Positions 5,018 to 33,378 of a DNA stretch of 64,000 nt are shown piece after piece. Every line of letters begins with the position of its first letter. The first letter of the stretch is position 1. The notes under the pieces are model-generated. The model ran no database searches, had not been told where the DNA came from, and was given only the letters and a program-made list of their open reading frames with translations. The stretch is from Candidatus Woesearchaeota archaeon (lineage in GTDB: Archaea > Nanobdellota > Nanobdellia > SCGC-AAA011-G17 > JACPIM01), in NCBI GenBank assembly GCA_016188045.1, contig JACPIM010000002.1, forward strand, positions 108,737 through 172,736, read 5' to 3'. The position numbers and the translations under genes are program-made.

Positions 5018-5110
5018 GCGCCGATAGTTTAGTGGTTAGAATCTCGGCCTTCCAAGCCGATGACCTGAGAAACAGTATACTGTTCAGGATTTCAAATCTC
5101 AGTCGGCGCA
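5018..5110 (+). tRNA. tRNA-Gly(TCC) with a 21-nt intron at position 53/54 (5070-5090)
   Basis: Acceptor stem GCGCCGA/TCGGCGC, anticodon loop CTTCCAA, T-stem CTGAG/CTCAG; intron forms a BHB with central helix CCTG/CAGG. Confidence 0.93.
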
Positions 5111-10243: not shown

Positions 10244-10281
10244 TTTTTCTCCATTAGCTTTCTGCCCATTAAAGGAAGTTG

Positions 10282-10302
10282 ATAAGAAACGCAGTTTCTT
10301 AT
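10282..10302 (+). repeat. GNA-triloop hairpin repeat copy (ATAAGAAAC-GCA-GTTTCTTAT)
   Basis: Perfect 9-bp stem preceded by GGAAGTTG. Confidence 0.75.
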
Positions 10303-10452
10303 TTGCGAAAGCTTTTTAAACTACTTTTATTTAATTATATATAGGCTAGATTATTAAGAATAAGCACCTTAACTAATCTAGCATTAACAAATATTCCTTT
10401 TTAAATCTTTCTACAAAACATTATTAAATAAATTTGTAAAGCAAAGAAGGTT

Positions 10453-12450
10453 ATGGAAAAGATCAATAAAAAGGTATTTTATTTCATATTATTGATATTC
10501 TTAAATTATGTACTTATACCTGCTTGGTTATTGATTAGAGATACAAAATTTAGGATATTATACTTCATTATTCTAATATTATTTCTCCCATTTTCTGCTG
10601 TATTTTTAAGATATTTATTAAATAAAACACAAATTAAAACATTTGAAAAGCCAGAAAAGAATTTTAAATTGAAATTTTTATTAGTTTCATTATTTGCATT
10701 TTTATCCCAGATATTCCTTATATTCCAGCCAATAACGTTTACAGACGAAATTGCCTATGTTAGCGAAGGAATGTATTCATTTACAATTTTAAATAATTTA
10801 AGTCATTCATTATTTGGTTTTTCTATAATAGTTTTATCTTATCTAGTATTAGCATTATTATTGCTTTTATTTATTATATTCAGAAAAATTAATTTTAAAA
10901 AATATTTTGAGAAAAAAAATTTTATTTTATATACTTTAATAACCTTCATAGTTATATCAGTAATAATTTTCATTTTAATCAATTCATATTTAGAAGTTTT
11001 CCTATCCAAGGCATTCACATCAAAATCTTTGGATTATAAGTTATCGTGGTTAGTCGCAGGGATTCAAATAATATATTACACATTACCAACATTATTCCTA
11101 AATCTAAGTGAATTTTCATTTAGAATAACTTCTCTTTTGATATTTATAGCTGCTGGTTATTTCTTCATAAAGTTACTGCAATTATTAAATATAAGAAGAA
11201 ATATTTTCTATACTTTATTGATTTTCTTTTTTATCCCTTCTTTCTCGTATTTTGCAAACTTAGCATTTGGAACAACAGAACTGATATTTTTCACAGTATC
11301 AATTTCATATTTCTTAGTAAGATACGAACAGCATAAAGATCAGAATTCTTTATTTTATTTCATCCTATTATCAGTTCTTATGGTCTTTTTTGATAAGAAA
11401 GCAAATGCCTTTATCTTGGGATTATTAATTTTTTACATCTTAAAATTAATCATAATTAATAAATTTAGAATAAGAGAATTTTTACAGCAAAATAAAATTA
11501 TTCTTTATTCATTATTATTTATATCTATCTTAACAATACCACAAAACCTAATACGAAGCGAACAGTTTTATCAGACATCATTAAACGAATTAAACCCATA
11601 TCTTGATAATCAAGAAAGTAAATTCTTGAATCTAAGCAACTGGCTAAGTCTATTTCAGTCAACAAGAGTATTATCTAACTTGCCAAATCAGATAACAATA
11701 CCTATGCTTATATTATCCATATTTTCGTTATTTATTGTTATACCTCAAATTTTAATAAGAAAAAACCACCAATTATTGCTCCTAATTTCAATATTTCTGG
11801 GCTATTACATATTCTTCACTTCTTTAATCTATAATGGTTCGCCCAGATATACAGTCCCTATGCTTTTTATTTTTCCAATATTTTATATATATTTTATAAA
11901 AATAATAATTCTTAAAAAACCAAACTTGGCTAATTTTCTAAATATTTTTACTCTAATATTATCTGTTTTCGTAATAGTTTTTACTCTTTTTTTAGCATAT
12001 CACAATTATCAAGATCGTTATCTTCCTGCAGACCAGTTATTTTCATACATCAAACAAGAATTGCCTAATGAAAAATTCCTAAAAACAATGACACCATCTT
12101 CATATAATTTTTATATCATAAAGAATAATCTAAATTTTAATAATTTTGATCCAACAATATGGGAAAAAGCAGAAAATCAAACCTTTGATAATCTTTATGA
12201 TTATATGTCTGAAAATAATATTACTTACTTTATATTACTCTTACCGAATTATTCTTATGATTCTTATTATCCAAGAAAATACACAACTTGGCTGGATTTA
12301 TCAAACTATAAAGATTTAACTTCATTTCCGATTTTAAATCACTCTTTAGTTAACGATTTGTATAATGAAAAAAGCAGCAAGTTCAAAAAAATTAAAGAGT
12401 TCGCTTTTGGCAAAAATGTTATGTTTATTATAAAGAGAATAGATTCATAA
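10453..12450 (+). CDS. Polytopic GT-C fold glycosyltransferase (ArnT/PMT-like)
   Basis: Many TM helices, an early DE motif (TDEIAY), SEFSFR and a late PRY motif. Confidence 0.65.
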   Translation: MEKINKKVFYFILLIFLNYVLIPAWLLIRDTKFRILYFIILILFLPFSAVFLRYLLNKTQIKTFEKPEKNFKLKFLLVSLFAFLSQIFLIFQPITFTDEIAYVSEGMYSFTILNNLSHSLFGFSIIVLSYLVLALLLLLFIIFRKINFKKYFEKKNFILYTLITFIVISVIIFILINSYLEVFLSKAFTSKSLDYKLSWLVAGIQIIYYTLPTLFLNLSEFSFRITSLLIFIAAGYFFIKLLQLLNIRRNIFYTLLIFFFIPSFSYFANLAFGTTELIFFTVSISYFLVRYEQHKDQNSLFYFILLSVLMVFFDKKANAFILGLLIFYILKLIIINKFRIREFLQQNKIILYSLLFISILTIPQNLIRSEQFYQTSLNELNPYLDNQESKFLNLSNWLSLFQSTRVLSNLPNQITIPMLILSIFSLFIVIPQILIRKNHQLLLLISIFLGYYIFFTSLIYNGSPRYTVPMLFIFPIFYIYFIKIIILKKPNLANFLNIFTLILSVFVIVFTLFLAYHNYQDRYLPADQLFSYIKQELPNEKFLKTMTPSSYNFYIIKNNLNFNNFDPTIWEKAENQTFDNLYDYMSENNITYFILLLPNYSYDSYYPRKYTTWLDLSNYKDLTSFPILNHSLVNDLYNEKSSKFKKIKEFAFGKNVMFIIKRIDS

Positions 12451-12482
12451 GATATTTAAATCTAAAAAAAGCAACTCTTTTT

Positions 12483-13100
12483 ATGAACTTAGATTTATTT
12501 TTACTATATCTCGCAAATTATTCTTATTTATCAATAGCTGTTCTTATGTTACTATCATCAATAGGTTTTCCATTTCCAGACGACTTAATCATGATTTCAG
12601 TAGGGTATTTATCTTATTTAAAACTAATAAATCCTTATATTGCCGGTTTTGAAATTATTTTTCTGGGTTTACTATTAGACAATATCTATTTTTTTCTTGG
12701 GAGATACAAAGGAAAATCAATCTTGGATAGATTATCAAATAGATCAGAATTTATTAAGAAAATAGCCCAACAAAACGAATCTTATGTTTTAAGACCAAGA
12801 AAAGTATTCATAGCAAGATTTGTTCCAGTCTTAAGATCTGTAGTCCCGTTCGCGGCAGGAACATCTGAAATAAAATGGAAAATATTCTTCATGTACAATC
12901 TGTTTGCTCTTTTAATTATGACCCCAATTATAATAATATTGAGTTTTCATTTTAGCAGGTATCTTGTAGTATTTTTCAATCTTAATGAAAAAGCAGTTGG
13001 TATAGTTTTATTGCTGCTGGTTTTTTTAGGCTTAATCATAACAATAATAAAAATATTAATTAGGTTATTTAAAAAATCAAATATTTCTCAAAAAAACTAA
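12483..13100 (+). CDS. DedA family membrane protein
   Basis: GFPFPDD and ARFVPVLRSVVPFAAG motifs. Confidence 0.9.
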   Translation: MNLDLFLLYLANYSYLSIAVLMLLSSIGFPFPDDLIMISVGYLSYLKLINPYIAGFEIIFLGLLLDNIYFFLGRYKGKSILDRLSNRSEFIKKIAQQNESYVLRPRKVFIARFVPVLRSVVPFAAGTSEIKWKIFFMYNLFALLIMTPIIIILSFHFSRYLVVFFNLNEKAVGIVLLLLVFLGLIITIIKILIRLFKKSNISQKN

Positions 13101-13775
13101 AAACCCGGTATGTCCAAGAATTAAATTCTTTGGCCTTAATCTTATATCATCAACAATCCATTCTCTTTCAATATTTTCCAAAACTTTTTCAACATAAAAA
13201 CCCATAGCTTCCTTAACTAAAAGATCAACTTGGTTTATATTAGGTAAATAGCAAACTAAAAAACCACCAGATTTCAAGCTTTTTTTAGCGTGTTTTAAAA
13301 CTTTCCAAGGTTCATTTAAATCCAAGGTTATTAAGTCTAAATCATTTTCATCAATTCCTTCATAAATATCTTTGTTCTTTAATTTAACTTTTATACCTAA
13401 AAATTCTAAATTTTTTTTAGCTAGATTAAAAAAGTCTTTATTTTTTTCATAACTTGTAACCTTTTTGCTTATATTACCTAAAAATCCAGCCAAAACCCCG
13501 CAACCAGATCCAGCATCAACAACTTTGCTTTTTGAATTAATTCCAGTATAAGATAAAATTAAACCAATATCTTTAGGAAGCATTATGGCAGGTCCTCTTT
13601 TTATTTTATTTATTTTATCAACAAAACCGCCATCAAAAACAATAAACTCTTTTCCTAAATGACTTTTTACAACTCCATTTCGAATATATTTTTCTTTAAT
13701 AACACCAAAAGAAGTATGCAAATCTCCACCATCCCAATAGTGTTTATTTCCTTTAGAATCTATGATTACTTTCAT
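13077..13775 (-). CDS. trmI: tRNA (adenine-N1)-methyltransferase TrmI/GCD14
   Basis: KRGPAIMLPKD, VVDAGSGCG, LDLNEPW and GHTGFL motifs; start set at MKVIIDSKG. Confidence 0.9.
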   Translation of the reverse strand: MKVIIDSKGNKHYWDGGDLHTSFGVIKEKYIRNGVVKSHLGKEFIVFDGGFVDKINKIKRGPAIMLPKDIGLILSYTGINSKSKVVDAGSGCGVLAGFLGNISKKVTSYEKNKDFFNLAKKNLEFLGIKVKLKNKDIYEGIDENDLDLITLDLNEPWKVLKHAKKSLKSGGFLVCYLPNINQVDLLVKEAMGFYVEKVLENIEREWIVDDIRLRPKNLILGHTGFLVFLRNI

Positions 13776-13776
13776 A

Positions 13777-13998
13777 TTATCTTCTTTCAGTAAAAAAATA
13801 AACCAACATTTTTTTATCAGGAAATCCATTTTTTTTGATAATTAATCTGTATAAATCTATATTATGGGTTCCATACCATGCATAAATTGGATTACCATTA
13901 AACTCTTGACCAACCCTTACAAGTCCATATTTATCTGCATCTCCTAAACTAAGTTCAAGTGGGGGTACTTTTTTATCAGACATTTTGCTCCTAATCAT
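13777..13998 (-). CDS. Small hypothetical protein
   Basis: ORF between tRNA-Leu and trmI; no recognisable motif. Confidence 0.5.
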   Translation of the reverse strand: MIRSKMSDKKVPPLELSLGDADKYGLVRVGQEFNGNPIYAWYGTHNIDLYRLIIKKNGFPDKKMLVYFFTERR

Positions 13999-14012
13999 TT
14001 CTTATGAATATT

Positions 14013-14176
14013 TGCGGGGAACAGGATTCGAATTCGCAACCCTTTTCCGTGAACGCTTTTCCTAAAAGGGTTCCTGCGTAGGCACTAAGCCAATACGTCT
14101 TGAGCGTATCCCGTCAAGTCGATTCTTTCCGAGGTTTCTTCCTAAGAAAGCTCTTTGACCACTCCGGCATCCCCGC
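14013..14176 (-). tRNA. tRNA-Leu(CAA) with two 40-nt introns (D-loop 14115-14154; position 53/54 14033-14072)
   Basis: GCGGGGA/TCCCCGC acceptor stem, CTCAAGA anticodon loop, long variable arm; BHB helices GGTC/GACT and CGCA/TGCG. Confidence 0.92.
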
Positions 14177-14279
14177 ATATAAGGAATTATTCCTTATCAA
14201 CCATAAATAAGTAAGAAAACCTTTATAAATCTTACAATGCAAAAAAGCAAGTAATAGAAAATAGTTATTGGGGGGACAA

Positions 14280-14858
14280 ATGCTAGAAGAATTAACCTTT
14301 TTAGAAGAAGGCAAATTTACTCAAAGAGATGAAGTAGTAAAAAAGAAAGCAAGAGAATTAGCGGATATTGCACAAGGTGAAGAACCAAAAATACTTCACG
14401 AAATATCTAAATATCTATTTAGAATTGCTCAAGAAGTAAGACCTAATTTATTTAGAAAAAGAACTGCTTCTCAAATAATATTATCAGGGTGTACTACGGG
14501 TAGCACAGATAAAGTCATAGTATTTCTGGCATTGGCAAGAGAAAACGGAATACCATCCGCATATATTGAGGCATTTGAAAAATATTGGTTGCAAGAATTA
14601 AGATTTCCAATACAAGGTCATGTTTTTGCTCAAATACTCTTTGCAGATCAGTGGAGAATAGTCGAACCGACAAGGGGCGTATCTAGGGAAAATGAATATA
14701 GGTTTAATGATAGAACTTATATTGAAGCAGGAAAAGGCATTGATTTTTCACAATTATATGTTAAACAAGGAGAAGTTTATGCTCCAAACCCAGAAGGATT
14801 TGCAAATAAGCAAGCACTTATGGATTTAGCACGAAGAATAAAATGTCAGAACAAATAA
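14280..14858 (+). CDS. Transglutaminase-like domain protein (expected catalytic Cys appears replaced by Ser)
   Basis: TGSTDKVIVFLALARENGIP...GHVFAQI...WRIVEPT. Confidence 0.7.
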   Translation: MLEELTFLEEGKFTQRDEVVKKKARELADIAQGEEPKILHEISKYLFRIAQEVRPNLFRKRTASQIILSGCTTGSTDKVIVFLALARENGIPSAYIEAFEKYWLQELRFPIQGHVFAQILFADQWRIVEPTRGVSRENEYRFNDRTYIEAGKGIDFSQLYVKQGEVYAPNPEGFANKQALMDLARRIKCQNK

Positions 14859-15556
14859 TAAAATTAAAAGATGTTTGTAAAATTTACCAAATGGGGGAAA
14901 CAGAAGTTAAAGCTTTATATAATGTATCAATAGATATAGAAAAAGGAGATTTTGTAGCAATAATGGGTCCATCTGGATCAGGTAAATCAACAGGCTTAAA
15001 TCTCGTAGGTAGCCTAGATCTTCCAACTCTCGGAAATATATATCTTGACAGCCAAGACATTTCACATTTAACAGAGTCAGAATTAGCCCAGATAAGAGGT
15101 CAAAAAATAGGTTTTATTTTTCAGCAGTTTAATCTAATCCCAAACTTAACAGCAAAAGAAAATGTTATGCTTCCTTTATTATTTCAAGGAATTGATAAAG
15201 AAGAGCGAGAATCAAGAGCAGAAGAACTGTTAAATCTAGTAGAACTACAAGACAGGATGGAGCACTATCCAAATCAACTCTCAGGAGGTCAGCAACAAAG
15301 AGTAGCTATAGCGAGAGCATTAGCAAATAACCCGGAAGTTATTCTTGCAGACGAACCAACAGGAAATTTAGATACAAAAACAGGAGAAAAAGTATTAGAA
15401 TTTCTAAATAAACTAAATGAAAAAGGAACTACTATTATTATGGTTACCCATGATCAAGATCTAGCAAAAGAGCACGCAAAAACAATTTACTCATTAAAAG
15501 ATGGTTCTCTAGAGGGCGTTTATAAAAGAACTGGCAAAAGCTGGAAAAAATTGTAG
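14843..15556 (+). CDS. ABC transporter ATP-binding protein (LolD/MacB family)
   Basis: GPSGSGKST, LSGGQQQR and DEPTGNLD motifs. Confidence 0.95.
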   Translation: MSEQIIKLKDVCKIYQMGETEVKALYNVSIDIEKGDFVAIMGPSGSGKSTGLNLVGSLDLPTLGNIYLDSQDISHLTESELAQIRGQKIGFIFQQFNLIPNLTAKENVMLPLLFQGIDKEERESRAEELLNLVELQDRMEHYPNQLSGGQQQRVAIARALANNPEVILADEPTGNLDTKTGEKVLEFLNKLNEKGTTIIMVTHDQDLAKEHAKTIYSLKDGSLEGVYKRTGKSWKKL

Positions 15557-22719: not shown

Positions 22720-22754
22720 TTTTTCTTTTTTATTCTTTTTTTTCCAGTTTTTCA

Positions 22755-22985
22755 TTAAGAAGTTAATTGAATCTTAACTGGTAAATTTACGCTTATATCC
22801 TTTAATTTCTCGGTTCTTTTTTTAAAATTAAAAATAGCAAAACCCCTTATCTCTCTTGTTTTTTCATCTATTCGCTTAAATAAATCATCTCCCAAGTCTT
22901 CAAAATAGGCCTCGGTGGGTTTACCTATCCTTATCTCCAGAAAATCCCCTTCTTCATCATAATGCACATTTAAATTATCTTTCAT
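22755..22985 (-). CDS. DUF2283-like putative antitoxin
   Basis: YDEEGDFLEI...GFAIFNF; overlaps the upstream gene. Confidence 0.75.
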   Translation of the reverse strand: MKDNLNVHYDEEGDFLEIRIGKPTEAYFEDLGDDLFKRIDEKTREIRGFAIFNFKKRTEKLKDISVNLPVKIQLTS

Positions 22986-23271
22986 TTTTTATATTACTTA
23001 CGTAAAAACTAGTTATAACAAATCCATTACCATTTATATATTTTACTGCAACTAACAAATATTTCCTTACTTTTTTAAAATGTTTATAATAAAAATTAAC
23101 TTTTTCGTCATTCTTACTTTGTTTTACGATTAATGGAGTAATAATCGCTTCTTTAATAATTTCTATATTATTAGATAATTTAGGATGCTCAGAAACTATA
23201 TGTTTCCATCTTTCCTTTGTCAAATAAATAATCCTGCCGGTTTTGTCCTTTATTTCAAATAGTTTATTCAT
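22975..23271 (-). CDS. Putative RelE/DUF4258-like toxin
   Basis: RWKHIVSEHP...GFVITSF; paired with the DUF2283-like gene. Confidence 0.65.
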   Translation of the reverse strand: MNKLFEIKDKTGRIIYLTKERWKHIVSEHPKLSNNIEIIKEAIITPLIVKQSKNDEKVNFYYKHFKKVRKYLLVAVKYINGNGFVITSFYVSNIKNER

Positions 23272-23421
23272 CTATTCTTTTATTTCAGTTCTTTTCTCTA
23301 TTTTCTTACATCGTAAACAATATTTTTGATAGTCCCTTATGTTAGAAGTTGCAGATGTCCAAAATTTTTCTTTGCTCCACTTATGAAATCCCAATTTGCA
23401 CAAAATCTTTCCAAAAACCAT
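23272..23421 (-). CDS. Small Cys/His protein (DUF1660-like), 49 aa
   Basis: Manual translation MVFGKILCKLGFHKW...YCLRCKK; not in the ORF track. Confidence 0.6.
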   Translation of the reverse strand: MVFGKILCKLGFHKWSKEKFWTSATSNIRDYQKYCLRCKKIEKRTEIKE

Positions 23422-24922: not shown

Positions 24923-25747
24923 CTAATCAACCCATTTTTTACTTAATCCCTTTGGTAATTTTTTAATAAAATCAATTATCTTTTGAATTAAAGATTCTTG
25001 TTCATTAATTCTTTCTTCTAATTCGTCCACTCTATTTTCTAATTCTTCTAATCTTTCCTCTATATCTGGTTCAGGTTCGGGAGTTATCCCATTAATAGTT
25101 AATATTTTCACTTCATCAATAATCCCATTAAAAAACTGATTAAGACCAGGTTCCCCCCACGAAATAAAAATCTGTTGTGATACTTGTGGCATTTGTCCAA
25201 TCTTTGGTACACTTCCATCTAAAATATCATTTACATATACATTAATGCTAGTACCATTATACTCCATTTTTAGTTTATACCATACCTCCTGCTCTAGGAT
25301 GGTATTTCCATTAACAGCAGTCCATGTATTTGAAGTAATACAGCTAGTAGGACAATTTCCATCATTGGCATAAACTCCACCAGCGATTACATTATCTCTA
25401 ATAGCTAAATAATAAGGACCGTTCTTTGCAATAATACTACCATCGGTATTAGATTTTCTTTTTACGTAAGCTTCTAATACTACATTATCGGTAAGGTCAA
25501 CAGAGGAAGTTTTTATAATTGAAATTTTATCATCTACTCCATCGAACTCTAATGCATAACCAGATATACTATCTGTTGTCCATATCGCTTCACCATATAT
25601 CATTCCATGATTTCCGTTTGTTGTTTCATCAAATACGTTATTACCACTACCTTCGTCAAACTTCCAATAAGCTATTGTATCAGCTAAAACATAAAAAGAA
25701 CTTAAAATTAATATTAATCCCATCAATAATATTGGTTTTATTTTCAT
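24923..25747 (-). CDS. Secreted LamG/concanavalin-like domain protein
   Basis: AYWKFDEGSG...FDGVDD...FNGIIDEVKI; C-terminal coiled coil. Confidence 0.85.
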   Translation of the reverse strand: MKIKPILLMGLILILSSFYVLADTIAYWKFDEGSGNNVFDETTNGNHGMIYGEAIWTTDSISGYALEFDGVDDKISIIKTSSVDLTDNVVLEAYVKRKSNTDGSIIAKNGPYYLAIRDNVIAGGVYANDGNCPTSCITSNTWTAVNGNTILEQEVWYKLKMEYNGTSINVYVNDILDGSVPKIGQMPQVSQQIFISWGEPGLNQFFNGIIDEVKILTINGITPEPEPDIEERLEELENRVDELEERINEQESLIQKIIDFIKKLPKGLSKKWVD

Positions 25748-25803
25748 AGTTATAACCTCTCTAAAAACACAAAACAAAAGCTTTATATATTTTATGATTG
25801 TCC

Positions 25804-25819
25804 TTATGATATATCATAA
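25804..25819. promoter_or_regulatory. Perfect 16-bp palindrome TTATGATATATCATAA in a divergent promoter
   Basis: Lies between the lamG and wHTH genes. Confidence 0.55.
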
Positions 25820-25838
25820 AGAAGTATCATATACTAAG

Positions 25839-26048
25839 ATGGAAGAAATTCAAAAAAAGATAGTTGAATTTTTAGAAAAACAAGAATGGCCTGTAACGAC
25901 AGAAGAAGTAGCTAAAGAGCTTAAAATAAGTTGGAATACTGCGCAAGTTCATTTATTAAAATTAATTAATCAAGGAAAGATTAAATATAAAAAAGTTGGA
26001 AGACAAAATCAGTTTTGGTTAGTTAAGAAATATGAGAAGGAATTTTAA
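25839..26048 (+). CDS. Small winged-helix DNA-binding protein
   Basis: TTEEVAKELKISWNTAQVHLLKL helix-turn-helix. Confidence 0.85.
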   Translation: MEEIQKKIVEFLEKQEWPVTTEEVAKELKISWNTAQVHLLKLINQGKIKYKKVGRQNQFWLVKKYEKEF

Positions 26049-26065
26049 ATTAATATTAAGTTCTA

Positions 26066-26476
26066 TTATCTTCTATTAAATAATCTTAGAAAAAAATAGA
26101 TAACTTTTTTTGTAAAACTTTTAATAATCATTGGTGATAGTTTATCATTAAAATAACTTAAACATCTAGTAAGAGTATTAATTTTCAATTCTGATTCATA
26201 TTGTTTTTCCCAATATTTAAATAATGTAAGGCCTTTGGTTATATTTAAATGAGACTTAAATTGAAGTAATGTCTCCCTTATCTCTAAACCATCTATCCAG
26301 GCAATTAATTTGATATCATAATCCCCTCCTTGAAATGGTTTAGGTAATTTTAAAATAAACTCTAATCTTTTGCTAAAACTAGTTCTGGGTGGTATTGAAA
26401 ATTGCAGATCTTTTTTCACCCTATCCACTTTTTTTAATTCTAGAAGCAAGGGACTTCTAGAATATTTATCCTTAAT
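26066..26476 (-). pseudogene. 5'-truncated gene fragment of unknown function
   Basis: Open frame runs up to the TTAATTAA junction with no ATG start. Confidence 0.4.
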
Positions 26477-26900
26477 TAATTACAAAATAGGAACAATGAT
26501 AGAATTTCCAAGAGCAGCATTAAATGCAGATGAGTTAGCTCAAGAAGCAGAATTTATGAGTTTTGGAACTAATGATTTAACTCAAACAACATTGGGATTT
26601 TCAAGAGATGATGCTGGAAGATTCATTCCGCATTATTTAAGCAAAAATGTTTTTGAAAAAGACCCATTCCAGACAATAGATCAGGAAGGTGTTGGTAAAA
26701 TAATGAAACTTGCAGTTGAAAAAGCTCGTTCAGTTAATTCAGAAATTGATTTTGGGATTTGCGGTGAACATGGCGGAGATCCATCTTCTGTTAAATTCTG
26801 TCACAAGATAGGATTAAGCAACGTTTCATGTTCTCCATATAGAGTTCCAATTGCAATCTTGTCAGCTGCACAAGCAGTTATTGAAGAAAAAAATAATTAA
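26475..26900 (+). pseudogene. ppdK: C-terminal fragment of pyruvate phosphate dikinase
   Basis: [29 protein letters not shown] and VSCSPYRVP motifs; only the last ~140 aa are present. Confidence 0.9.
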
Positions 26901-27130
26901 TATTTTCTAGAATCAACAAGATAAACTCCAGGTTGTTCTATATCCTGGGCTGGCCTTTGTTCTAAAGTTCCAAGACTCTCAGCTATAGGTTTCATTATGT
27001 CCATAATAGCAGTATACCCACTACAAATACCATTTCTAAACTCACCTTCAATTTTTTTCTGAGCTAATATCATAAGTCCAGATCCAACTAAAAACGTCAA
27101 TCCCATTTCCAATAAATCTCTTCTGTTCAT
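26897..27130 (-). CDS. Small hypothetical protein with N-terminal TM or Tat-like signal
   Basis: MNRRDLL followed by a hydrophobic stretch. Confidence 0.55.
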
Positions 27131-27237
27131 CTTAGATCAATTAATATTCCATTTACAATATTTAAATCTTTCTATTTTAACTACTTAAAAGTAAATAATA
27201 AATTCATTTAAACCCATATCACCATATCAATAAAATC

Positions 27238-27324
27238 GCCCTGATAGCTCAGTTTGGCGGAGTAGCTGCTTCGTATTAAAAAAGAAAAAGCAGTTGGTCG
27301 CAGGTTCAAATCCTGCTCAGGGCT
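27238..27324 (+). tRNA. tRNA-Thr(CGT) with a 13-nt canonical intron (27276-27288)
   Basis: GCCCTGA/TCAGGGC acceptor stem, GCTGC/GCAGT anticodon stem, T-arm GCAGG-TTCAAAT-CCTGC, U73. Confidence 0.88.
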
Positions 27325-27626
27325 TATCTCTTAGAAAAAGGATATCTCTTTATTTTTTTACAATTTGTACAATAATAAATTAATTTTTTATTTTTTACTC
27401 TGGCCCTTAATGTTCTCCCCGGTATTAAATAAGAATAACAATATTTACAGATAAATCTTTTATATCCTAAAGGTATTTTTACCTTGTATTTCATAGAAAT
27501 TTTTCTTGCTAAAGTTACATACCTATTTGCCAATTCTAAATTATTCTTAGAACTTTTCTTAGCTTCATTAAATAAGGTTTCAATCCTTTCTTTAGCAATT
27601 TGTTTTTGTTTTGATTTTGGTATCAT
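27324..27626 (-). CDS. rnp4: RNase P protein component 4 (Rpp21)
   Basis: IAKERIETLF, RYVTLARKISMK, CKYC...CTNC. Confidence 0.95.
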   Translation of the reverse strand: MIPKSKQKQIAKERIETLFNEAKKSSKNNLELANRYVTLARKISMKYKVKIPLGYKRFICKYCYSYLIPGRTLRARVKNKKLIYYCTNCKKIKRYPFSKR

Positions 27627-27679
27627 TATAATTATAAAACAATAAAGAAATAATAAAGCTTTCTAAATTTTTAATAAAG

Positions 27680-27695
27680 GTGGGCAACTAACCAA
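27680..27695 (-). repeat. 16-bp duplicate of the 5S rRNA 3' end (att-like site)
   Basis: GTGGGCAACTAACCAA is identical to 29738-29753. Confidence 0.85.
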
Positions 27696-27718
27696 AGAAC
27701 CTATTTGGGAAGCTCCAT

Positions 27719-28030
27719 TTATTTTTTTGGTGGAAACCTCTGTGCATTCTTCTCCATTTTGCGTGCGAAAGCTTCCCCCAAATTAATATTACATTCATTA
27801 GACATTTTAAGCAAGAGATAAAGTAAGTCTGCTAACTCTTCATTCATATTAATGTCTTTTTCTGAGGTGTGTTGTCCACCATAATTTTTCATGTGTAAAA
27901 CATTTCTTGCTACCTCACCTAATTCTTCGATCATATGAGTTAGAATATCGCTAGGAGGCGTTTGCCAATCTCTTTCCTTTACAAAATTATCAATGTGGTC
28001 TTGTAGCTCCTTTATATTTTTATTTTCCAT
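27719..28030 (-). CDS. MazG-like nucleotide pyrophosphohydrolase
   Basis: EELGEVAR...EELADLL; start set at MENKNIK (track start 28054). Confidence 0.88.
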   Translation of the reverse strand: MENKNIKELQDHIDNFVKERDWQTPPSDILTHMIEELGEVARNVLHMKNYGGQHTSEKDINMNEELADLLYLLLKMSNECNINLGEAFARKMEKNAQRFPPKK

Positions 28031-28046
28031 TAGATATACACTCTCT

Positions 28047-28469
28047 CTATACAAATCTTTTCAGTATATTTTTTATTCCATCAATACTCGAACTCTTATT
28101 ATTGCCAGAAATTCTGTGCCATGCACCTTCTAGCATCATACCCAAGTTCTCAGAGTCAATGCTGGACTTTGACCTGTATCCAATTATAGGTTTTTGAGCT
28201 ATATAAATTCTTTGATATTCCATCGCAACTCCAGCACTAGCCTGGTCAAATACTATTAGCATTAAATCTGAAGTATCTACTGCTCTTTCGTTTGCTTCTA
28301 ATATCTCAATAGGACTCAATCTTGTGTCAATAGGTACCTCAATTTGAGGCAAGTAGGTGTCAAAACCCAGATCATTACATAATTTGAACAAATCCAGATT
28401 AAGCCTTTGTTGTTTGTAATCTCCAATTTTAGAAGAAATGAATATTCTTGAAGTTTTTCTTTTAGACAT
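28047..28469 (-). CDS. Nucleoside 2-deoxyribosyltransferase / N-glycosidase (NDT/Rcl family)
   Basis: IFISS, YLPQ, SDLMLIVFD, SAGVAME (catalytic Glu) and KPIIGY motifs. Confidence 0.8.
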   Translation of the reverse strand: MSKRKTSRIFISSKIGDYKQQRLNLDLFKLCNDLGFDTYLPQIEVPIDTRLSPIEILEANERAVDTSDLMLIVFDQASAGVAMEYQRIYIAQKPIIGYRSKSSIDSENLGMMLEGAWHRISGNNKSSSIDGIKNILKRFV

Positions 28470-29031
28470 TTATTCCCCTATCTCCTAGTATTTTTTTAGT
28501 CGTTGCAATTGATTCTCTGTAAAAATCCCTTAGGTTTCCGTTGTTACTTATTCTTGCATCAACAGTGATCAATAATTCATCTGTCCCTAAGGCTCTTTCC
28601 CTATCTTCTAATTCTAAGAAAGCTTCTAAAGTTAGAGGGTCTCCCTCTCTACCACGTAATACTGTTCTATTGTATCTAATATCCCTATCAGCATAAATTC
28701 CAATAGTTATCAATCCAGAAGCACAACTTTTGATAGATTGTTTATCTGCCAACTCCCTTAAAGAATCAACAACTATGACTTGATTGTCTACCAATAGTTT
28801 TTCAATATATGGCTTTGCAATGTCCATAAAATGGTTATTTGTTTCTTCCCTAATTTTATCGCTGACTCTTGCTATGTTTTCTACAGTTAGTTCTAAATCT
28901 CTACGTTTTACTTCAGCCCTCACAATATCTCCAGTAGATAACGAAGGTATTTTGAGATCTCTCTTTACAAAATGTGAATAAGTTCCTTTTCCTGAATTTG
29001 AATAACCCACCAATCCTATTACAAAGCTCAT
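28462..29031 (-). CDS. P-loop nucleoside/nucleotide kinase (UPF0200/dephospho-CoA-kinase-like)
   Basis: GYSNSGKGT, STGDIVR, VVDSLR and RGREGD motifs. Confidence 0.8.
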   Translation of the reverse strand: MSFVIGLVGYSNSGKGTYSHFVKRDLKIPSLSTGDIVRAEVKRRDLELTVENIARVSDKIREETNNHFMDIAKPYIEKLLVDNQVIVVDSLRELADKQSIKSCASGLITIGIYADRDIRYNRTVLRGREGDPLTLEAFLELEDRERALGTDELLITVDARISNNGNLRDFYRESIATTKKILGDRGINV

Positions 29032-29657
29032 CTTTTTCTCATTAAATAATGATCCAATTTAATTTTCGCAATTCCTACATCAACAGTTTGTTTTCTTTCT
29101 AAGTGAAAATATTTCTCTAGTTTAGAATCTAATTTTCGCAAGTTATGAAAATCACTTTTAACTTCATAAACTTCTCCTGTTAAAGACCTATATCTTAAAT
29201 TTTCTTCCCCTCCTCTAAATTGTATCATACTTTCAGCGTTAAAATTCGCCAAAATTAATTTTCCATTAGTTTTTAGAACCTTTGAAATTCCACCCAAAAA
29301 GGCTTGTAAATCTTGTACGTGATCTAGAACAAATGATGTATGTACAAGATCACTTATTCTAGTTTCCAGATGGACTTCTGGAAACTGTCCTAATATGTAC
29401 ATGGCTTTTGGAACCTGTCGTGAATTAAGTTTTATCATTTCAATAGAAACGTCTACTCCTATCTTATCCTGAGCCCTAATCTTTCTTAAAAATGAACCAT
29501 CAGCACAACCTATATCGATCACTGTATCATATATGCTTCCACTAATTATCTCTCCAGTTAATTCTTCTTCTAACTTTCTTACTGCGGCAGTAGTTGGATG
29601 GTTAACAGCATCGCTATATTCCTCAGCAATCTTGTCATAGAATTCCCTAACTTCCAT
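29028..29657 (-). CDS. Class I SAM-dependent methyltransferase
   Basis: VIDIGCADG, GVDVSIEMI and VLKTNGKL motifs. Confidence 0.88.
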   Translation of the reverse strand: MEVREFYDKIAEEYSDAVNHPTTAAVRKLEEELTGEIISGSIYDTVIDIGCADGSFLRKIRAQDKIGVDVSIEMIKLNSRQVPKAMYILGQFPEVHLETRISDLVHTSFVLDHVQDLQAFLGGISKVLKTNGKLILANFNAESMIQFRGGEENLRYRSLTGEVYEVKSDFHNLRKLDSKLEKYFHLERKQTVDVGIAKIKLDHYLMRKR

Positions 29658-29737
29658 ATTATTTCCGAAATTTCAAACTATTTAAAAAGATTAATCTATA
29701 ACCAACAATAATAAGTTACGGTGCCTATTTGTAAAAT

Positions 29738-29850
29738 GTGGGCAACTAACCAAGGTTCCCACGCGAAGCGCAGTACAGCTTGGAACGTGTACGGTCTTGA
29801 CTGCCAAGTTCGAAATGGGTTTGGGTAGAACCGTAGCTATGGTCGCCCTA
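29738..29850 (-). rRNA. rrf: 5S rRNA (stand-alone)
   Basis: Reverse complement GGGCGACCATAGC...CCCATTTCGAAC...AGTCAAG...GTACTG...GGGAAC...GTTGCCC; helix I GGGCGAC/GTTGCCC; ends approximate. Confidence 0.92.
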
Positions 29851-30132
29851 TTTTTTAAGTTTAGCAAGAGGTTTATAAAATTTTCTATCCCTATTTTCAA
29901 CAGCTTTGCCTATTGTACCACCAAGATAATTATGATCAATGAACCATGTAGGCCTTAATTCAGTAGTCTCTGGATCCTGGGTGTATACCATACCAGAGCG
30001 CGCCCCGTAAACTAGTTTAACTTCTGGCTGTATTTGTTCTTCATTTTTACTCATTAATTTACAATAAGTACCAACAGTTAAAACACCCAATAAAGTAACC
30101 AACCCAATATTTCTTATTCTTTCAGATATCAT
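29848..30132 (-). CDS. Small hypothetical membrane-anchored protein
   Basis: N-terminal TM; 3' end overlaps the probable 5S promoter. Confidence 0.5.
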   Translation of the reverse strand: MISERIRNIGLVTLLGVLTVGTYCKLMSKNEEQIQPEVKLVYGARSGMVYTQDPETTELRPTWFIDHNYLGGTIGKAVENRDRKFYKPLAKLKK

Positions 30133-30392
30133 AAGAATTCTCCTCTTCTTATTTTACTCATAACACCAAGCAATTCCCTGGTCCTCATATTGTAAAAACC
30201 GTTAGGCAAACCAACCTTATTCATTCTGCAATATTCTTTTACCCATTGTCTATATCCACCGACAGTAGAAGGGCCAACTTCCCATCTTGGCATTTTAACT
30301 TCTTGCCTTTGCGCTTGTTCTTCTACAGTTCTGTCTAAACCATTAAAATCCAGAAGCTCCAATTGCCCCATTATTTCTTTCCTTTTTGCCAT
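30129..30392 (-). CDS. Small hypothetical protein
   Basis: ORF with an upstream TATA box and an ATGA overlap. Confidence 0.55.
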   Translation of the reverse strand: MAKRKEIMGQLELLDFNGLDRTVEEQAQRQEVKMPRWEVGPSTVGGYRQWVKEYCRMNKVGLPNGFYNMRTRELLGVMSKIRRGEFL

Positions 30393-30515
30393 ATTTTTAT
30401 TTATACATTTAAAGTTTATAAATTTTTCTATTTTTATTTACCCCATAGTAGTAAATAAGATATATATAGCCTATTAGTCTTCTTTTTACTAAAATAAACA
30501 AGGGGTGCTATACTT

Positions 30516-31070
30516 ATGAAAGCAAAATCAAATAAACATGATCTTTCAGCTGTGTTAGTATTGTCTTTGGTTCTTACCTCAATATTAATAATAAATGGTA
30601 ACTTTAAAACAGGCCAAGTAGTTGGAGGACAAGGAAGCATACTGGCTGATTCAAATCCAGACGGAGCAAATATTTTAGTTAATGGAGTAAATCAAGGATT
30701 TACAGCAAGAACAGTTCCAGTTTCAGTAGGAACACATAACGTTGTTATAAGCAAAACAGGCTACTTAGATTATAGCACTACAGTTAACGTTGCTTCAGGA
30801 GAAATAGTAAGAGTCAATACAAATTTAATGGTTGATCCGAATTATTGGGACAGCACACAATATGGTTCTGTAACAGTAATGTCAACTCCGCCAATGTCAA
30901 ATGTATTCATAGACGATGTTTACAAAGGAGTAACACCAATTACAATAAGAAATGTTTCACCAGGAACTCATGGAATTAGAGTTTCAAAAGCAGGATACAA
31001 TGAGTACATAAATACAATCTACACATATGCTCAACAAGACAACAATTTCAATGTAAACTTAGTTCCTTAA
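30516..31070 (+). CDS. PEGA-domain membrane-anchored protein
   Basis: Two repeats of S.P.GA.V.VDG...G.TP...G.H.I.VSK.GY. Confidence 0.9.
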   Translation: MKAKSNKHDLSAVLVLSLVLTSILIINGNFKTGQVVGGQGSILADSNPDGANILVNGVNQGFTARTVPVSVGTHNVVISKTGYLDYSTTVNVASGEIVRVNTNLMVDPNYWDSTQYGSVTVMSTPPMSNVFIDDVYKGVTPITIRNVSPGTHGIRVSKAGYNEYINTIYTYAQQDNNFNVNLVP

Positions 31071-31137
31071 TTTCTATTTTTTATTTTATTTTTTCTAGTG
31101 TAATAATGCTTAAATACCCCACAACTAAATTATATCT

Positions 31138-31455
31138 ATGAGAAGTATAGCATTAACTTCAATAGGCTTAGCAGGATTATTAGTTTCTGGTTGTAGTAGT
31201 TTTTCTAGTGCTAATTATGGTTACCAGATAACTTATCCTAAATATGTTGAGATTTTAGCTAAAGATGCTGAAAGCTTAGCCCGTAGAGGTAATGCTGATG
31301 ATTTATATGAAGCTGGAAAGATCTTCATGAAAATTGGAAGAATAGAAAGAGCAGAGGGCGTTGCAGAAGCATTGTTAGAAAATAAAAGAAATTTCGCATT
31401 AAATTTGTATGATGAATTGCAAAGATATAGAGATTCACATCCATCAAAGAAATGA
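31138..31455 (+). CDS. Hypothetical lipoprotein
   Basis: Lipobox LVSGC; helical C-terminal half. Confidence 0.6.
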   Translation: MRSIALTSIGLAGLLVSGCSSFSSANYGYQITYPKYVEILAKDAESLARRGNADDLYEAGKIFMKIGRIERAEGVAEALLENKRNFALNLYDELQRYRDSHPSKK

Positions 31456-31456
31456 T

Positions 31457-31795
31457 TTAATACATTTTTAACTTTCCGGTTATCTTATCAATTTTATCCT
31501 CTTTATCAGGCCCAATGGCCAAACAAGTTTTGGTTGGTTCTTTAAAAAAAGTTTTTCCGGCATCAGTTATCAAAGAAGTTACTAATTTTAGTGCTTTGGC
31601 CTTTTTTTGAAAATCTAATAATTCTTTTTCATCCTTTACTTTAAGAATCACTTTTTTCATCCCCTGTTCTCGCCATTCTCTAACTATCATTTCAGAGGAT
31701 TTTAAAACTGCTTCAACAGAAGCATGGCTACATTGTGCTGCTAGCTTTCCCTTATCCATTCTCAAGTCCAGTCTACAGAGAATTACTTGTTTCAT
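31457..31795 (-). CDS. pth2: Peptidyl-tRNA hydrolase Pth2
   Basis: GKLAAQCSHA, DAGKT and TCLAIGP motifs. Confidence 0.95.
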   Translation of the reverse strand: MKQVILCRLDLRMDKGKLAAQCSHASVEAVLKSSEMIVREWREQGMKKVILKVKDEKELLDFQKKAKALKLVTSLITDAGKTFFKEPTKTCLAIGPDKEDKIDKITGKLKMY

Positions 31796-31869
31796 AAAAT
31801 TTTTATTACTTTGTCGTTTAAAAAACTTTTGAAGTAACTTTTATATAATATTAGATACTACATAAATGC

Positions 31870-32385
31870 ATGAAAAGGGGTTTATTTTTGTTATTTCTTG
31901 TATTATTTAGTGCTTTCGTTAGTTCAAGGTCTATTGATTTAATAACTAGCTCAAATTATCAAATTGAAGATAAGAATATTACCCTATTAAGAGTATATGA
32001 AGATAAGGCCTTGGTTTGCGTGAATGGATTCAAAACAATAGTAACAGAAAACGTCATAAAAAAAGTAAATGGTGTTAATATAGAATTAAGAAATACTAGG
32101 GATAGTATTGCAAATTTTGATTTTGATTATTCCTGCAAAGGCTCCTGTGTTTGTACAGATGATTGCAACAATAATCCCTGTCTTAAAGAAAGTAATGAAA
32201 TAATTCCAGAAATTAACCAGATCGAAGATGGTCAAGCCAGCAACGAAATAATAGATAACCTAGTTGAAACAGGAGAAGATGAAGTTGTAACAAGTGAAAA
32301 CATAGGTATTGGAAGCATCATAATTGCAGCCTTAATTATTATTGTCCTATTTCTAGGAGTAATCATATTATGGAAGGTATATTAG
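31870..32385 (+). CDS. Secreted, TM-anchored hypothetical protein with a Cys cluster
   Basis: Signal peptide, CKGSCVCTDDCNNNPC, C-terminal TM. Confidence 0.7.
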   Translation: MKRGLFLLFLVLFSAFVSSRSIDLITSSNYQIEDKNITLLRVYEDKALVCVNGFKTIVTENVIKKVNGVNIELRNTRDSIANFDFDYSCKGSCVCTDDCNNNPCLKESNEIIPEINQIEDGQASNEIIDNLVETGEDEVVTSENIGIGSIIIAALIIIVLFLGVIILWKVY

Positions 32386-32681
32386 CGTTTTAATTTTCTC
32401 TTTGCTTCTTCCTCAAGTTTATCAAATATCTTGTGCGTTACCTTAGCAATATCCCAGTCATCTGCCTGCGCAATTATTTTTATTTTCGGAGCCTCTATTT
32501 TTCCATTAATAGAAATTTTTGCTCTCGTTCCTTGGCTTTTTGAATGTGTCTTTATCACCAGAACCAAAGTTTCATCAGGATAATATCTTTCTAATTTTGG
32601 ATATGCTTTTTCAGAAATTTCAGTTAATTTCTCCATGTCTTTTTCATTTAAATTATCTAAACCCACATATTGAATTGGCAT
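32382..32681 (-). CDS. Possible HPF/RaiA-like ribosome-associated domain protein
   Basis: Length and beta-alpha-beta3-alpha pattern ending AQADDWDIAKVTHKIFDKLE. Confidence 0.45.
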   Translation of the reverse strand: MPIQYVGLDNLNEKDMEKLTEISEKAYPKLERYYPDETLVLVIKTHSKSQGTRAKISINGKIEAPKIKIIAQADDWDIAKVTHKIFDKLEEEAKRKLKR

Positions 32682-32694
32682 AATTTATCACCCT

Positions 32695-33378
32695 TTATTT
32701 AATCTCTTTTAATTTTCCAAAGTTATAAACTTTATCCTCCACAATAAATATTTCAAAATTTCTTAAATCTTTCAAATAAGGAGATAAAAACTTTTCTTTT
32801 GTTATATCAGATCCTTCTATTAAAGGATTAAATGAAGGCATTACTATTAAATTATGCGATTTATACTTTCCTTTCAAAAAACACTTAAATCTTTCATCTG
32901 GTCTTTCCTTGAATGAAATTGCAGGATGTTCGTGGCTTATTATTACTGTTTTTTTTAGGTTTTTTACTATAGCATCCCCGTGTATTATAGAAATACTATC
33001 TATATCTAGCTTTTCTTTTATTTCTATATCCCTCTTTCTTGCAATGGGCTCTAAAATAGTATCATGATTTCCCTTAATAAAAATTAATTTATATTTTTCT
33101 TTTAAAGAATCTATAAATTTTAATGAATCCCTCCATTCCTGTTGGCTTATTCTGCCGAATTCATCTTTCAAGTCACCATTTATGATTATTATTTTTGGTT
33201 TTGCTTTTTCTATTATTTTATTAACGCTTTTTATGACTTGATCTATCTGAGAATACGGAACTAAAATACCTTGATTTACTAAAGACTCTTCAAAACCCAG
33301 ATGCAAGTCACCAAATATTAAGTAATCTTTATATTTTAAAGCTAAATCAACTATTTCTATATTATCTAGTATTTTCAT
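32695..33378 (-). CDS. Metallophosphoesterase (COG1407, Lhr-associated)
   Basis: GDLHLG, NGDLK, KGNHD, IHGD, SHEHP and MPSFN motifs. Confidence 0.9.
   Translation of the reverse strand: MKILDNIEIVDLALKYKDYLIFGDLHLGFEESLVNQGILVPYSQIDQVIKSVNKIIEKAKPKIIIINGDLKDEFGRISQQEWRDSLKFIDSLKEKYKLIFIKGNHDTILEPIARKRDIEIKEKLDIDSISIIHGDAIVKNLKKTVIISHEHPAISFKERPDERFKCFLKGKYKSHNLIVMPSFNPLIEGSDITKEKFLSPYLKDLRNFEIFIVEDKVYNFGKLKEIK

Follow-up and report, generated by a model that had tools for sequence, protein, structure and literature searches.

The 64,000-nucleotide stretch of DNA considered here (the window; contig JACPIM010000002.1, positions 108,737 to 172,736) belongs to a Candidatus Woesearchaeota archaeon (GCA_016188045.1, here G000), whose assembly comprises 1,021,983 bases in 24 contigs and is 92.6% complete. 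The element in question is a four-gene cassette lying between the 5S rRNA gene and rnp4, which encodes the RNase P protein Rpr2/Rpp21. The 5S gene is intact and occupies 29737-29850 on the minus strand (Rfam RF00001, 53.8 bits against a gathering score of 38, model positions 1-120), so that “downstream” of it means lower window coordinates; an Rfam search of the genome returns this single 5S match. The sequence GTGGGCAACTAACCAA on the plus strand, which reads TTGGTTAGTTGCCCAC on the RNA strand, is present in two exact copies. The proximal copy (29738-29753, minus strand) resembles the core of an attL attachment (att) site and corresponds to positions 98-113 of the 114-nt 5S match: these are the 16 nt that end at the penultimate base of the gene, the final base falling outside the repeat. 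The distal copy (27680-27695, minus strand), resembling an attR core, is a displaced 5S tail, and is followed by a 53-nt spacer (27627-27679, minus strand) and by rnp4 itself (27324-27626, minus strand; Pfam Rpr2, 2.4e-17). The insert between the repeats measures 2,042 bp (27696-29737) and holds four co-oriented open reading frames (ORFs) on the minus strand, that of the 5S gene, with ends that overlap or nearly abut. The original prediction had noted that a 16-bp 5S tail recurs exactly about 2 kb downstream and that a four-gene operon without an integrase separates the two copies. Both observations stand: the pair, which is the tail less its final base, is unique in the window and in the genome, and the ORFs together with Pfam searches confirm the gene content.

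Comparison with an empty site reveals how this arrangement arose. The metagenomic relative L065 has a 5S gene 91% identical and an rnp4 88% identical to those of G000, and in it the 5S tail TTGGTTAGTTGCCCAC runs directly into CTTTATTAAAAATTTAGAAAG..., with rnp4 following 52 nt later. In BLAST alignments window positions 29891..29734 match L065 173..331, and window positions 27695..26837 match L065 312..1194. Homology ends at the end of the proximal repeat and restarts exactly at the beginning of the distal repeat, so that 16 bases of L065 are used twice. Because the breaks fall exactly at the repeats, G000 must carry 2,042 bp of extra DNA together with a duplication of the last 16 bp of the target. 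The cassette is a true insertion with a 16-bp target duplication in the G000 lineage, and its operon is horizontally acquired, in agreement with the proposal that a cassette had integrated at the 5S 3’ end. The 53-nt spacer next to rnp4 is the ancestral one, near-identical to the L065 sequence after the 5S gene with few substitutions. A conserved block of this spacer also occurs in G001, G013 and L066, and it probably holds the rnp4 promoter.

The insertion appears to be recent. The closest relative, L064, has a 5S gene identical to that of G000 at 113 of 113 positions and flanking blocks 86-94% identical, and it lacks the cassette; its 5S-rnp4 interval has lost the old spacer and contains a 331-bp filling with one small ORF. 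The original prediction allowed that relatives might all carry the same genes by descent, or might have the 16-mer whatever their cargo. Neither is seen. Cassette genes lie near the 5S gene in none of the 12 loci of the family and in none of the 30 loci recovered by scanning metagenome contigs with rnp4 (three of which also contain a full 5S gene by Rfam), and relatives without cargo have no second 16-mer. The sole related match near the 5S gene of any of these relatives is a MazG-like stretch in L065, 28% identical and 3 kb away. A DNA search of 240 genomes of the order finds the whole cassette in G000 only, where it is single-copy. The same-genus assemblies G002 (81% complete) and G003 (71%) contain neither 5S nor rnp4 and offer no site to compare. 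The simplest history begins with an empty ancestor; the G000 line acquired the cassette once it had separated from L064, which changed independently.

The repeat itself is exceptional in its setting. In the window GTGGGCAACTAACCAA has only the two matches at up to 2 mismatches, where 0.01 would be expected, and none of 100 shuffles yields two or more. Exact copies in the entire assembly are likewise limited to this pair, and a third match, with 2 mismatches, lies within apparent coding sequence on contig C24. With one mismatch allowed, the repeat lengthens to 19 of 20 identical bases. Exact direct repeats of at least 16 nt spaced 100-5000 bp apart are common in this genome of 30% G+C, with 124 such pairs, only 4 of which have a G+C of at least 0.5. 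The 5S pair can nonetheless be regarded as non-chance, because it coincides with insertion borders that the empty site sets independently. The distal copy still matches at 16/16 positions with no obvious constraint acting on it, and the flanks between these relatives differ by 6-18%. It is not the remnant of a decayed second 5S gene, as no further 5S similarity is seen there and the MazG ORF stops 23 nt from the repeat. A weaker feature is the 8-mer CCTATTTG (27700-27707, plus strand), 4 nt inward of the distal repeat and repeated at 29724-29731, 6 nt inward of the proximal one; two 30-nt stretches drawn at random with a spacing of 2 kb have a direct 8-mer in common in 3% of cases.

Independent assembly support comes from Logan unitigs (k=31 assemblies) of four public runs. 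Four runs of one groundwater study, the possible source, contain the stretch and runs of another study contain part of it; unitigs across the cassette and its 5S-side junction are identical between the two. The 5S-side junction lies inside unitigs of runs X1, X5 and X6, from two studies, and the distal junction inside a unitig of X1 only. A lone unitig joint connects 27315 to 29560; its shorter side is 20 nt, a type prone to artefact, and it does not fall at the repeats. Unitig depth in X1 is about 71-89 over 25000-27312, 46 over 27283-28110, 131-144 over 28081-31244 and 60 over 31215-33000. The steps at ~27,300, ~28,095 and ~31,230 all fall away from the 16-bp repeats. This profile suggests that a second, more abundant population (or copy) shares an identical 3.1-kb stretch comprising the nucleoside 2-deoxyribosyltransferase-like (NDT-like) gene, the kinase, the methyltransferase, the 5S gene and upstream DNA to ~31,244.

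What does the insert contain? Non-coding DNA is confined to 80 nt at the 5S end and 23 nt at the other, with no trace of a decayed integrase. The left end (29658-29737, minus strand) provides the final base of the 5S gene and the TTTT run after it, and by eye an A/T-rich, TATA-like box can be seen ~30 nt ahead of the methyltransferase ATG. The idea that these 80 nt are a diverged copy of the ancestral spacer was rejected, as an equal score is reached by 46% of shuffles and by 31% of 80-mers drawn at random from the genome. The first gene (29028-29657, minus strand) encodes a 209-aa class I S-adenosylmethionine-dependent methyltransferase (Pfam Methyltransf_23 8.8e-13, Methyltransf_11 1.8e-11) that scores far under the cut-offs of all NCBIfam equivalog models. 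Its stop overlaps by 4 nt the start of the second gene (28462-29031, minus strand), which encodes a 189-aa P-loop nucleotide kinase-like protein (AAA_17 2e-11, ADK 6e-06). The best PDB matches of this kinase are the AdkA-like/UPF0200 proteins 3lw7 and 3h0k (E 1.3e-08, full length). Its family is rare, with 7 relatives among 5.8 billion proteins, the top one 75% identical; a scan of the genome collection with the kinase alignment returned only distant bacterial kinases (27-46% identity over the best segment) and missed a known relative in G234. The third gene (28047-28469, minus strand) encodes the NDT-like protein of 140 aa (PF05014 2.5e-07, 31.3 bits against a cut-off of 28.8), for which a search of PDB sequences gives no match. 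The last (27719-28054, minus strand) encodes a MazG-type nucleoside triphosphate pyrophosphohydrolase (Pfam MazG 5.8e-10), closest among PDB entries to YpjD (1.5e-11) and dCTP pyrophosphatase 1 (1e-07). Its true start is probably the ATG at 28030: homologues align from residue 9, and the 111-aa form is absent from the protein collection by exact look-up.

Exact look-up places each cassette protein on 2-3 contigs and reveals no second context. The same four families are clustered in G234, from another family of the order, with identities of 36% for the methyltransferase, 39% for the kinase and 69% for MazG, and NDT-like pieces. There an NDT-like/methyltransferase fusion is followed by the kinase, and alongside lie a convergent MazG gene and a further NDT-like fragment; at this locus (L049, G234:C34) the C-terminal NDT-like part is joined to the methyltransferase homologue in a single ORF at 2379-3200. 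Because the four families cluster in G234 as well, the cargo is a functional module that moves or rearranges as a set. G006 has a lone, frameshifted MazG gene, 77% identical. From the families represented, the cargo may be a nucleotide-pool sanitising or salvage module, in which unusual (d)NTPs would be hydrolysed in dCTPase-like fashion, the NDT-like protein would carry out a cleavage or a base exchange, and the kinase and methyltransferase would add re-phosphorylation and methyl transfer.

The site of insertion can be placed in the context of the order. Fifty-three loci were surveyed up to 8 kb downstream of the 5S gene: 50 species of the order, G000 included, together with L064-L066. In 34 of them rnp4 lies downstream of the 5S gene in the same orientation, often within 4-70 nt, and this linkage of 5S with the gene of an RNase P subunit is conserved across the order. 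Of the 34 linked loci, 15 have a gap of 0-105 bp and the other 19 one of 257-5559 bp. Because gaps of 105 bp or less occur across many families, the tight pair is the ancestral state, with rnp4 as the original downstream neighbour of 5S. The fillings are mutually unrelated. The same-genus G001 has an opposite-strand ORF of 135 aa; G011 and G014 have two genes where the congener G006 is tight; G013 has a small basic ORF, and L066 an ORF on the opposite strand. Their position differs too, coming after the conserved spacer block in L066 and G013 and within ~10 nt of the 5S end in G001. The 5S-rnp4 spacer is therefore a variable slot, or hot spot, holding unrelated DNA in over half of the linked loci, and the original suggestion of a variable cargo slot is upheld. 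Many 5S genes of the relatives contain internal expansions that bring them to 133-178 nt from the usual ~115 (G005, G007, G013, G014, G020, G027, G029, G031, G040, G042 and G045; loci include L037, L039, L045 and L046), and several of these score below the Rfam gathering threshold.

Could the tail of the 5S gene be an attachment site? The insertion with its 16-bp duplication can be read from the sequences; as to the enzyme responsible, we infer tentatively, with a probability of roughly 0.4, that the 5S tail underwent a single crossover with a matching site carried by a circular DNA, catalysed by a recombinase supplied in trans or since lost. The chromosomal 5S tail would act as attB and an identical stretch of 16-20 bp on the incoming circle as attP. 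One reciprocal, conservative attB x attP crossover, as at islands in tRNA and transfer-messenger RNA (tmRNA) genes, would integrate the circle, and the att copy of the element would rebuild the 3’ end of the RNA gene and supply its T-run terminator. The insert encoding no recombinase, the enzyme would have come from elsewhere or been lost; G000 itself encodes three candidates that might act in trans, namely a serine recombinase, a 428-aa integrase on a different contig and, at a distance of 45 kb, a recombinase of the XerA/integron type. The insertion point is a safe one, leaving the 5S gene whole and rnp4 with its spacer and probable promoter. An att site that rebuilds the gene predicts a repeat ending at the RNA gene end and an insert-borne TTTT, and a random staggered cut does not. 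The length of the repeat is also compatible with site-specific recombination, att cores usually measuring 8-60 bp according to PMC5704250.

Several observations weigh against this crossover. Neither the ORF list nor Pfam reveals a recombinase among the four ORFs of the insert, and the nearest one in the genome is 45 kb off. The original prediction had suggested looking for tyrosine recombinases near 5S genes; none is present within 15 kb of the gene in the 61 relatives searched (52 with a located 5S), even though 59 of the 61 encode such enzymes elsewhere, the closest at 16 and 23 kb. G000 yielded neither a helper element nor an integrase sharing this att specificity: the candidate 22-mer repeat of the integrase on C24 is unrelated to the 5S tail, and the repeat unit of the array beside the XerA/integron-type recombinase shows a weak likeness to the 5S-side junction that 2.8% of shuffles equal. 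Around the 16-bp repeat there is no clear inverted pair of core-binding sites, the flanking 8-mers being direct and weak. The insert is not of foreign composition, with a G+C of 0.332 against 0.304 ± 0.024 for the genome (87th percentile) and tetranucleotides at the 77th percentile; a composition this ordinary suggests a donor similar to G000 in this respect. Viral contigs yielded no relatives when scanned with the methyltransferase and the kinase, and the 52 viral stretches that contain the 16-mer are unrelated phage coding sequence, none similar to the cassette or to 5S. Nor did the searches find an attP-bearing circle, plasmid or virus, a second instance or a source element. Recurrence is equally absent. 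No 5S-tail repeat rises above control level at the 52 other 5S loci within 8 kb downstream, the runner-up to the 16 nt of G000 being 12 nt, a length that internal 5S 25-mers and shuffled tails also reach. In the 239 other genomes no contig contains the 16-mer twice, even with 2 mismatches allowed. Finally, the other fillings of the slot sit at other points and lack the 5S-tail repeat, so the slot as a whole needs no att mechanism. The original idea of a 5S-targeting mini-island mobilised in trans is thus unproven, with neither a nearby tyrosine recombinase nor a free form found, and is weakened by a tail duplication that stands alone among 53 loci. A bolder extension, which is a long shot, would make the 5S 3’ end of these DPANN-like archaea a genuine attachment site for small integrase-less cassettes. 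The host XerA/integron-type recombinase located 45 kb away, beside a cassette-like repeat array, would capture and release them, the 5S-rnp4 spacer would serve as a second promoter-proximal platform for cargo, and the window would show the only insert so young that both att sites persist.

The alternative that deserves most thought dispenses with both circle and site-specific enzyme. In homology-facilitated illegitimate recombination, a linear donor with the cassette already placed after its 5S gene would have exchanged homologously in or upstream of 5S, while its far end was joined illegitimately inside the recipient 5S gene, 16 nt before the end, leaving the distal 16-mer as a stub of the old gene. 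Such an event accounts equally well for a repeat that ends at the 5S end, for the missing recombinase and for the lack of recurrence. A donor so arranged is plausible, since 19 of 34 linked loci have cargo after 5S and no repeat, and the hypervariable stretches on both sides of a conserved 5S gene and promoter in G000, L064 and L065 are the pattern expected of a recombination anchor. The depths in X1 add a 3.1-kb identical stretch (5S, methyltransferase, kinase and NDT-like gene) that seems common to a second, more abundant population. However, a donor with the order cassette, spacer, rnp4 would be far more likely to engage in two-sided homologous recombination, which leaves no stub; the identity of the 5S gene to that of L064 at 113 of 113 positions requires the donor-derived part to be identical or very short; and the donor arrangement is absent from 240 genomes and 30 metagenome loci. 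On balance the stub is unlikely, but it keeps real weight. A staggered break over the last 16 bp of the 5S gene, filled in during a recombinase-independent insertion or cut by a casposon or transposon acting in trans, likewise requires neither circle nor recombinase, and an operon without mobility genes flanked by a target duplicated relative to an empty site is what defines the class of Furuta et al. 2010 (PMC2853133). That class takes 30 bp as its criterion and the duplication here is 16 bp. Moreover, the insert ends have no terminal inverted repeats, no Cas1, TnpB or Y1 transposase is found in the 92.6%-complete genome, and a random cut must have hit the penultimate base of an RNA gene by chance, all of which makes such a break improbable.

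The remaining alternatives question the event itself. The cassette might be old and vertically inherited, with L065 and others having lost it by recombination between the 16-mers, in which case the empty site would be a scar and not virgin DNA. Deletion between the repeats would indeed give exactly the L065 sequence, and gene loss is common here, as in the adjoining decaying fragment of a PEP (phosphoenolpyruvate)-utilising enzyme, of which L065 keeps ~20 codons. But tight 5S-rnp4 pairs are widespread among families of the order, the cassette being seen in none of them; L064, the nearest relative, has another filling and lacks the old spacer; the distal repeat is intact at 16/16 although free to drift beside flanks that differ by 6-18%; and an original repeat-making insertion is still needed. 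Inheritance of this kind is therefore very improbable. As for a chance repeat or a false join of cassette and 5S made at a short repeat during assembly, the contig was binned from a metagenome, and the 124 pairs of exact direct repeats of at least 16 nt within 5 kb show how readily such pairs occur in an A+T-rich genome. The 5S pair nevertheless belongs to the handful (4 of 124) with a G+C of at least 0.5 and matches both indel borders against L065 to the base. In addition, k=31 unitigs span both junctions, the 5S-side one in the second study as well, and a 16-nt repeat is shorter than the assembly k-mers, so that an artefact is scarcely credible.

The cassette comes close to several known systems. 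Insertions with long target duplications (Nobusato, Furuta and Kobayashi, on restriction-modification operons; PMC2853133) share with it an operon-sized insert without mobility genes, a duplicated target and detection against an empty site; here, by contrast, an archaeon is the host, the duplication of 16 bp falls short of the >30 bp that class requires, the end of an RNA gene is the target and the genes carried are not of the restriction-modification kind. Cis-mobilizable elements (CIMEs; PMC5704250), att-flanked remnants of integrative elements that have lost the integrase, likewise combine attL/attR-like repeats with cargo and no genes for integration or transfer. Unlike these elements, which the source describes in bacteria, the 5S insert has no resident or neighbouring helper of the same att specificity that could be found and no trace of a decayed integrase. 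A further parallel is with the islands in tRNA and tmRNA genes that encode a tyrosine integrase (Islander-type; PMC4383910): there too an intact RNA gene forms one border and a displaced 3’ fragment the other, the gene is restored by the element, and an empty site exists in a relative. The 5S cassette differs from them in its target, in having no integrase within the island, in an insert of only 2 kb and in being a single instance.

Recombination between attC and attI is not known to produce a target duplication, and casposons make target duplications of similar size with a preference for the 3’ ends of tRNA or protein genes. Integron cassettes, including those of archaeal integrons (Ghaly et al. 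2022, PMC9668308), which that source reports from Nanoarchaeota/DPANN, resemble the 5S cassette in the promoter-proximal capture of small cargo units. They are unlike it in other respects: the 5S insert contains no array unit or attC-like element, carries four genes, leaves only 23 nt between the MazG stop and the repeat, and has duplicated its target. PMC6563490 lists casposons among archaeal integrated elements. Against them and against other target-duplicating transposons stand an insert without terminal inverted repeats (none of 14 inverted pairs in 27640-29800 joins both ends), a genome in which searches for Cas1, TnpB-type and Y1 transposases gave no match, and the lack of a polymerase gene. 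Mobile DNA that targets 5S rRNA genes is known in the form of eukaryotic 5S-specific non-long-terminal-repeat retrotransposons (PMC5340908), but these belong to another domain of life and use an RNA-mediated mechanism, and the analogy is one of target choice only. A 2021 review of archaeal tyrosine recombinases (PMC8371274) does not contain the terms “rRNA”, “ribosomal RNA” or “DPANN” in its text, and no case of 5S as a prokaryotic integration target was found in open-access papers and preprints, which cannot prove absence.

The recombinases of G000, two of the tyrosine and one of the serine type, deserve a description of their own. The first is a 274-aa XerA/integron-type tyrosine recombinase (NF040815, 222 bits against a cut-off of 220) located outside the window (G000:C9 ~183,400-189,400; L177 9423-15388). 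Its transcription runs away from an array in which a 76/93-nt unit occurs 4-5 times (L177 10401, 11445, 11521, 13538 (partial) and 15296). The units part unrelated genes in mixed orientation, among them genes for a pyridoxal phosphate (PLP) enzyme-like protein, a peptidase E-like protein, Fic, a glyoxalase-like protein and small ORFs. The whole looks like an integron-type cassette array, and its unit is found in none of the 239 other genomes of the order. A link between this array and the 5S insert was considered and rejected, as the 76-nt unit is absent from the insert and 75% of shuffles match or beat the best local alignment. The second tyrosine enzyme is the 428-aa integrase on C24 (G000:C24 ~8,600-15,300; L176 4674-11303), which lies with a 479-aa protein and a winged-helix protein between exact direct repeats of 22 nt, 6.6 kb apart. 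The zinc-ribbon motif CPNCGKT is encoded by both 22-mers, of which one lies within the gene that precedes aEF-1beta; they may be either the att sites of an integrated element or merely a shared motif. The serine recombinase is on C15. Elements of the IMEX type, which a host Xer enzyme integrates at dif, would be bordered by dif or dif-like sites to which XerA binds; of such a system G000 has the XerA-type recombinase. Among the tRNA genes, ARAGORN detects only 5 in the whole genome, which makes a scan for repeated tRNA tails uninformative; it misses, for instance, a 93-nt tRNA in the window at 5018-5110 that Rfam recognises (49.7 bits), and many tRNA genes of G000 probably have introns or odd structures. 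The gene for tRNA-Ser(GCT) lies at 27238-27324 on the plus strand, convergent with rnp4 and outside the insert.

Variation at this locus extends beyond the insert. Upstream of the 5S promoter the sequence also differs between G000, L064 and L065, with the 5S gene and promoter conserved, and the 5S gene is a conserved island between two fast-changing stretches. Two ORFs of 87 and 94 aa that belong to no known family lie just upstream of the 5S promoter (window 29848-30392), the 94-aa one ending in the promoter and the start of 5S; at their place L064 has unrelated DNA of similar length in which the first four codons are alike, and L065 is different again. On the far side of rnp4, a 176-aa ORF (window 26370-26900) is a gene remnant whose only match is to the C-terminal portion, positions 174-290 of 293, of the PEP-utilising enzyme domain PF02896, and the corresponding place in L064 is taken by other DNA. 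Neither L064 nor L065 has the 528-bp stretch with a small ORF that G000 carries at window 22745-23272; its borders are marked by an A-rich repeat of ~10-14 nt (AAAAGAATA...), whose complexity is too low for a target duplication to be called.

Whatever the mechanism, the cassette is a base-precise example of recent gene gain in a genome of ~1 Mb, documented by an empty site in a relative, and the conserved 5S-rnp4 pair brackets a hot spot where over half of the surveyed linked loci have acquired unrelated DNA. Should the att interpretation hold, site-specific integration would have 5S rRNA as a target alongside tRNA and tmRNA genes. The hosts would be archaea with very small genomes, in which little is known about how genes are acquired, and the cassette would be an archaeal case of an integrase-less element that depends on a recombinase in trans.

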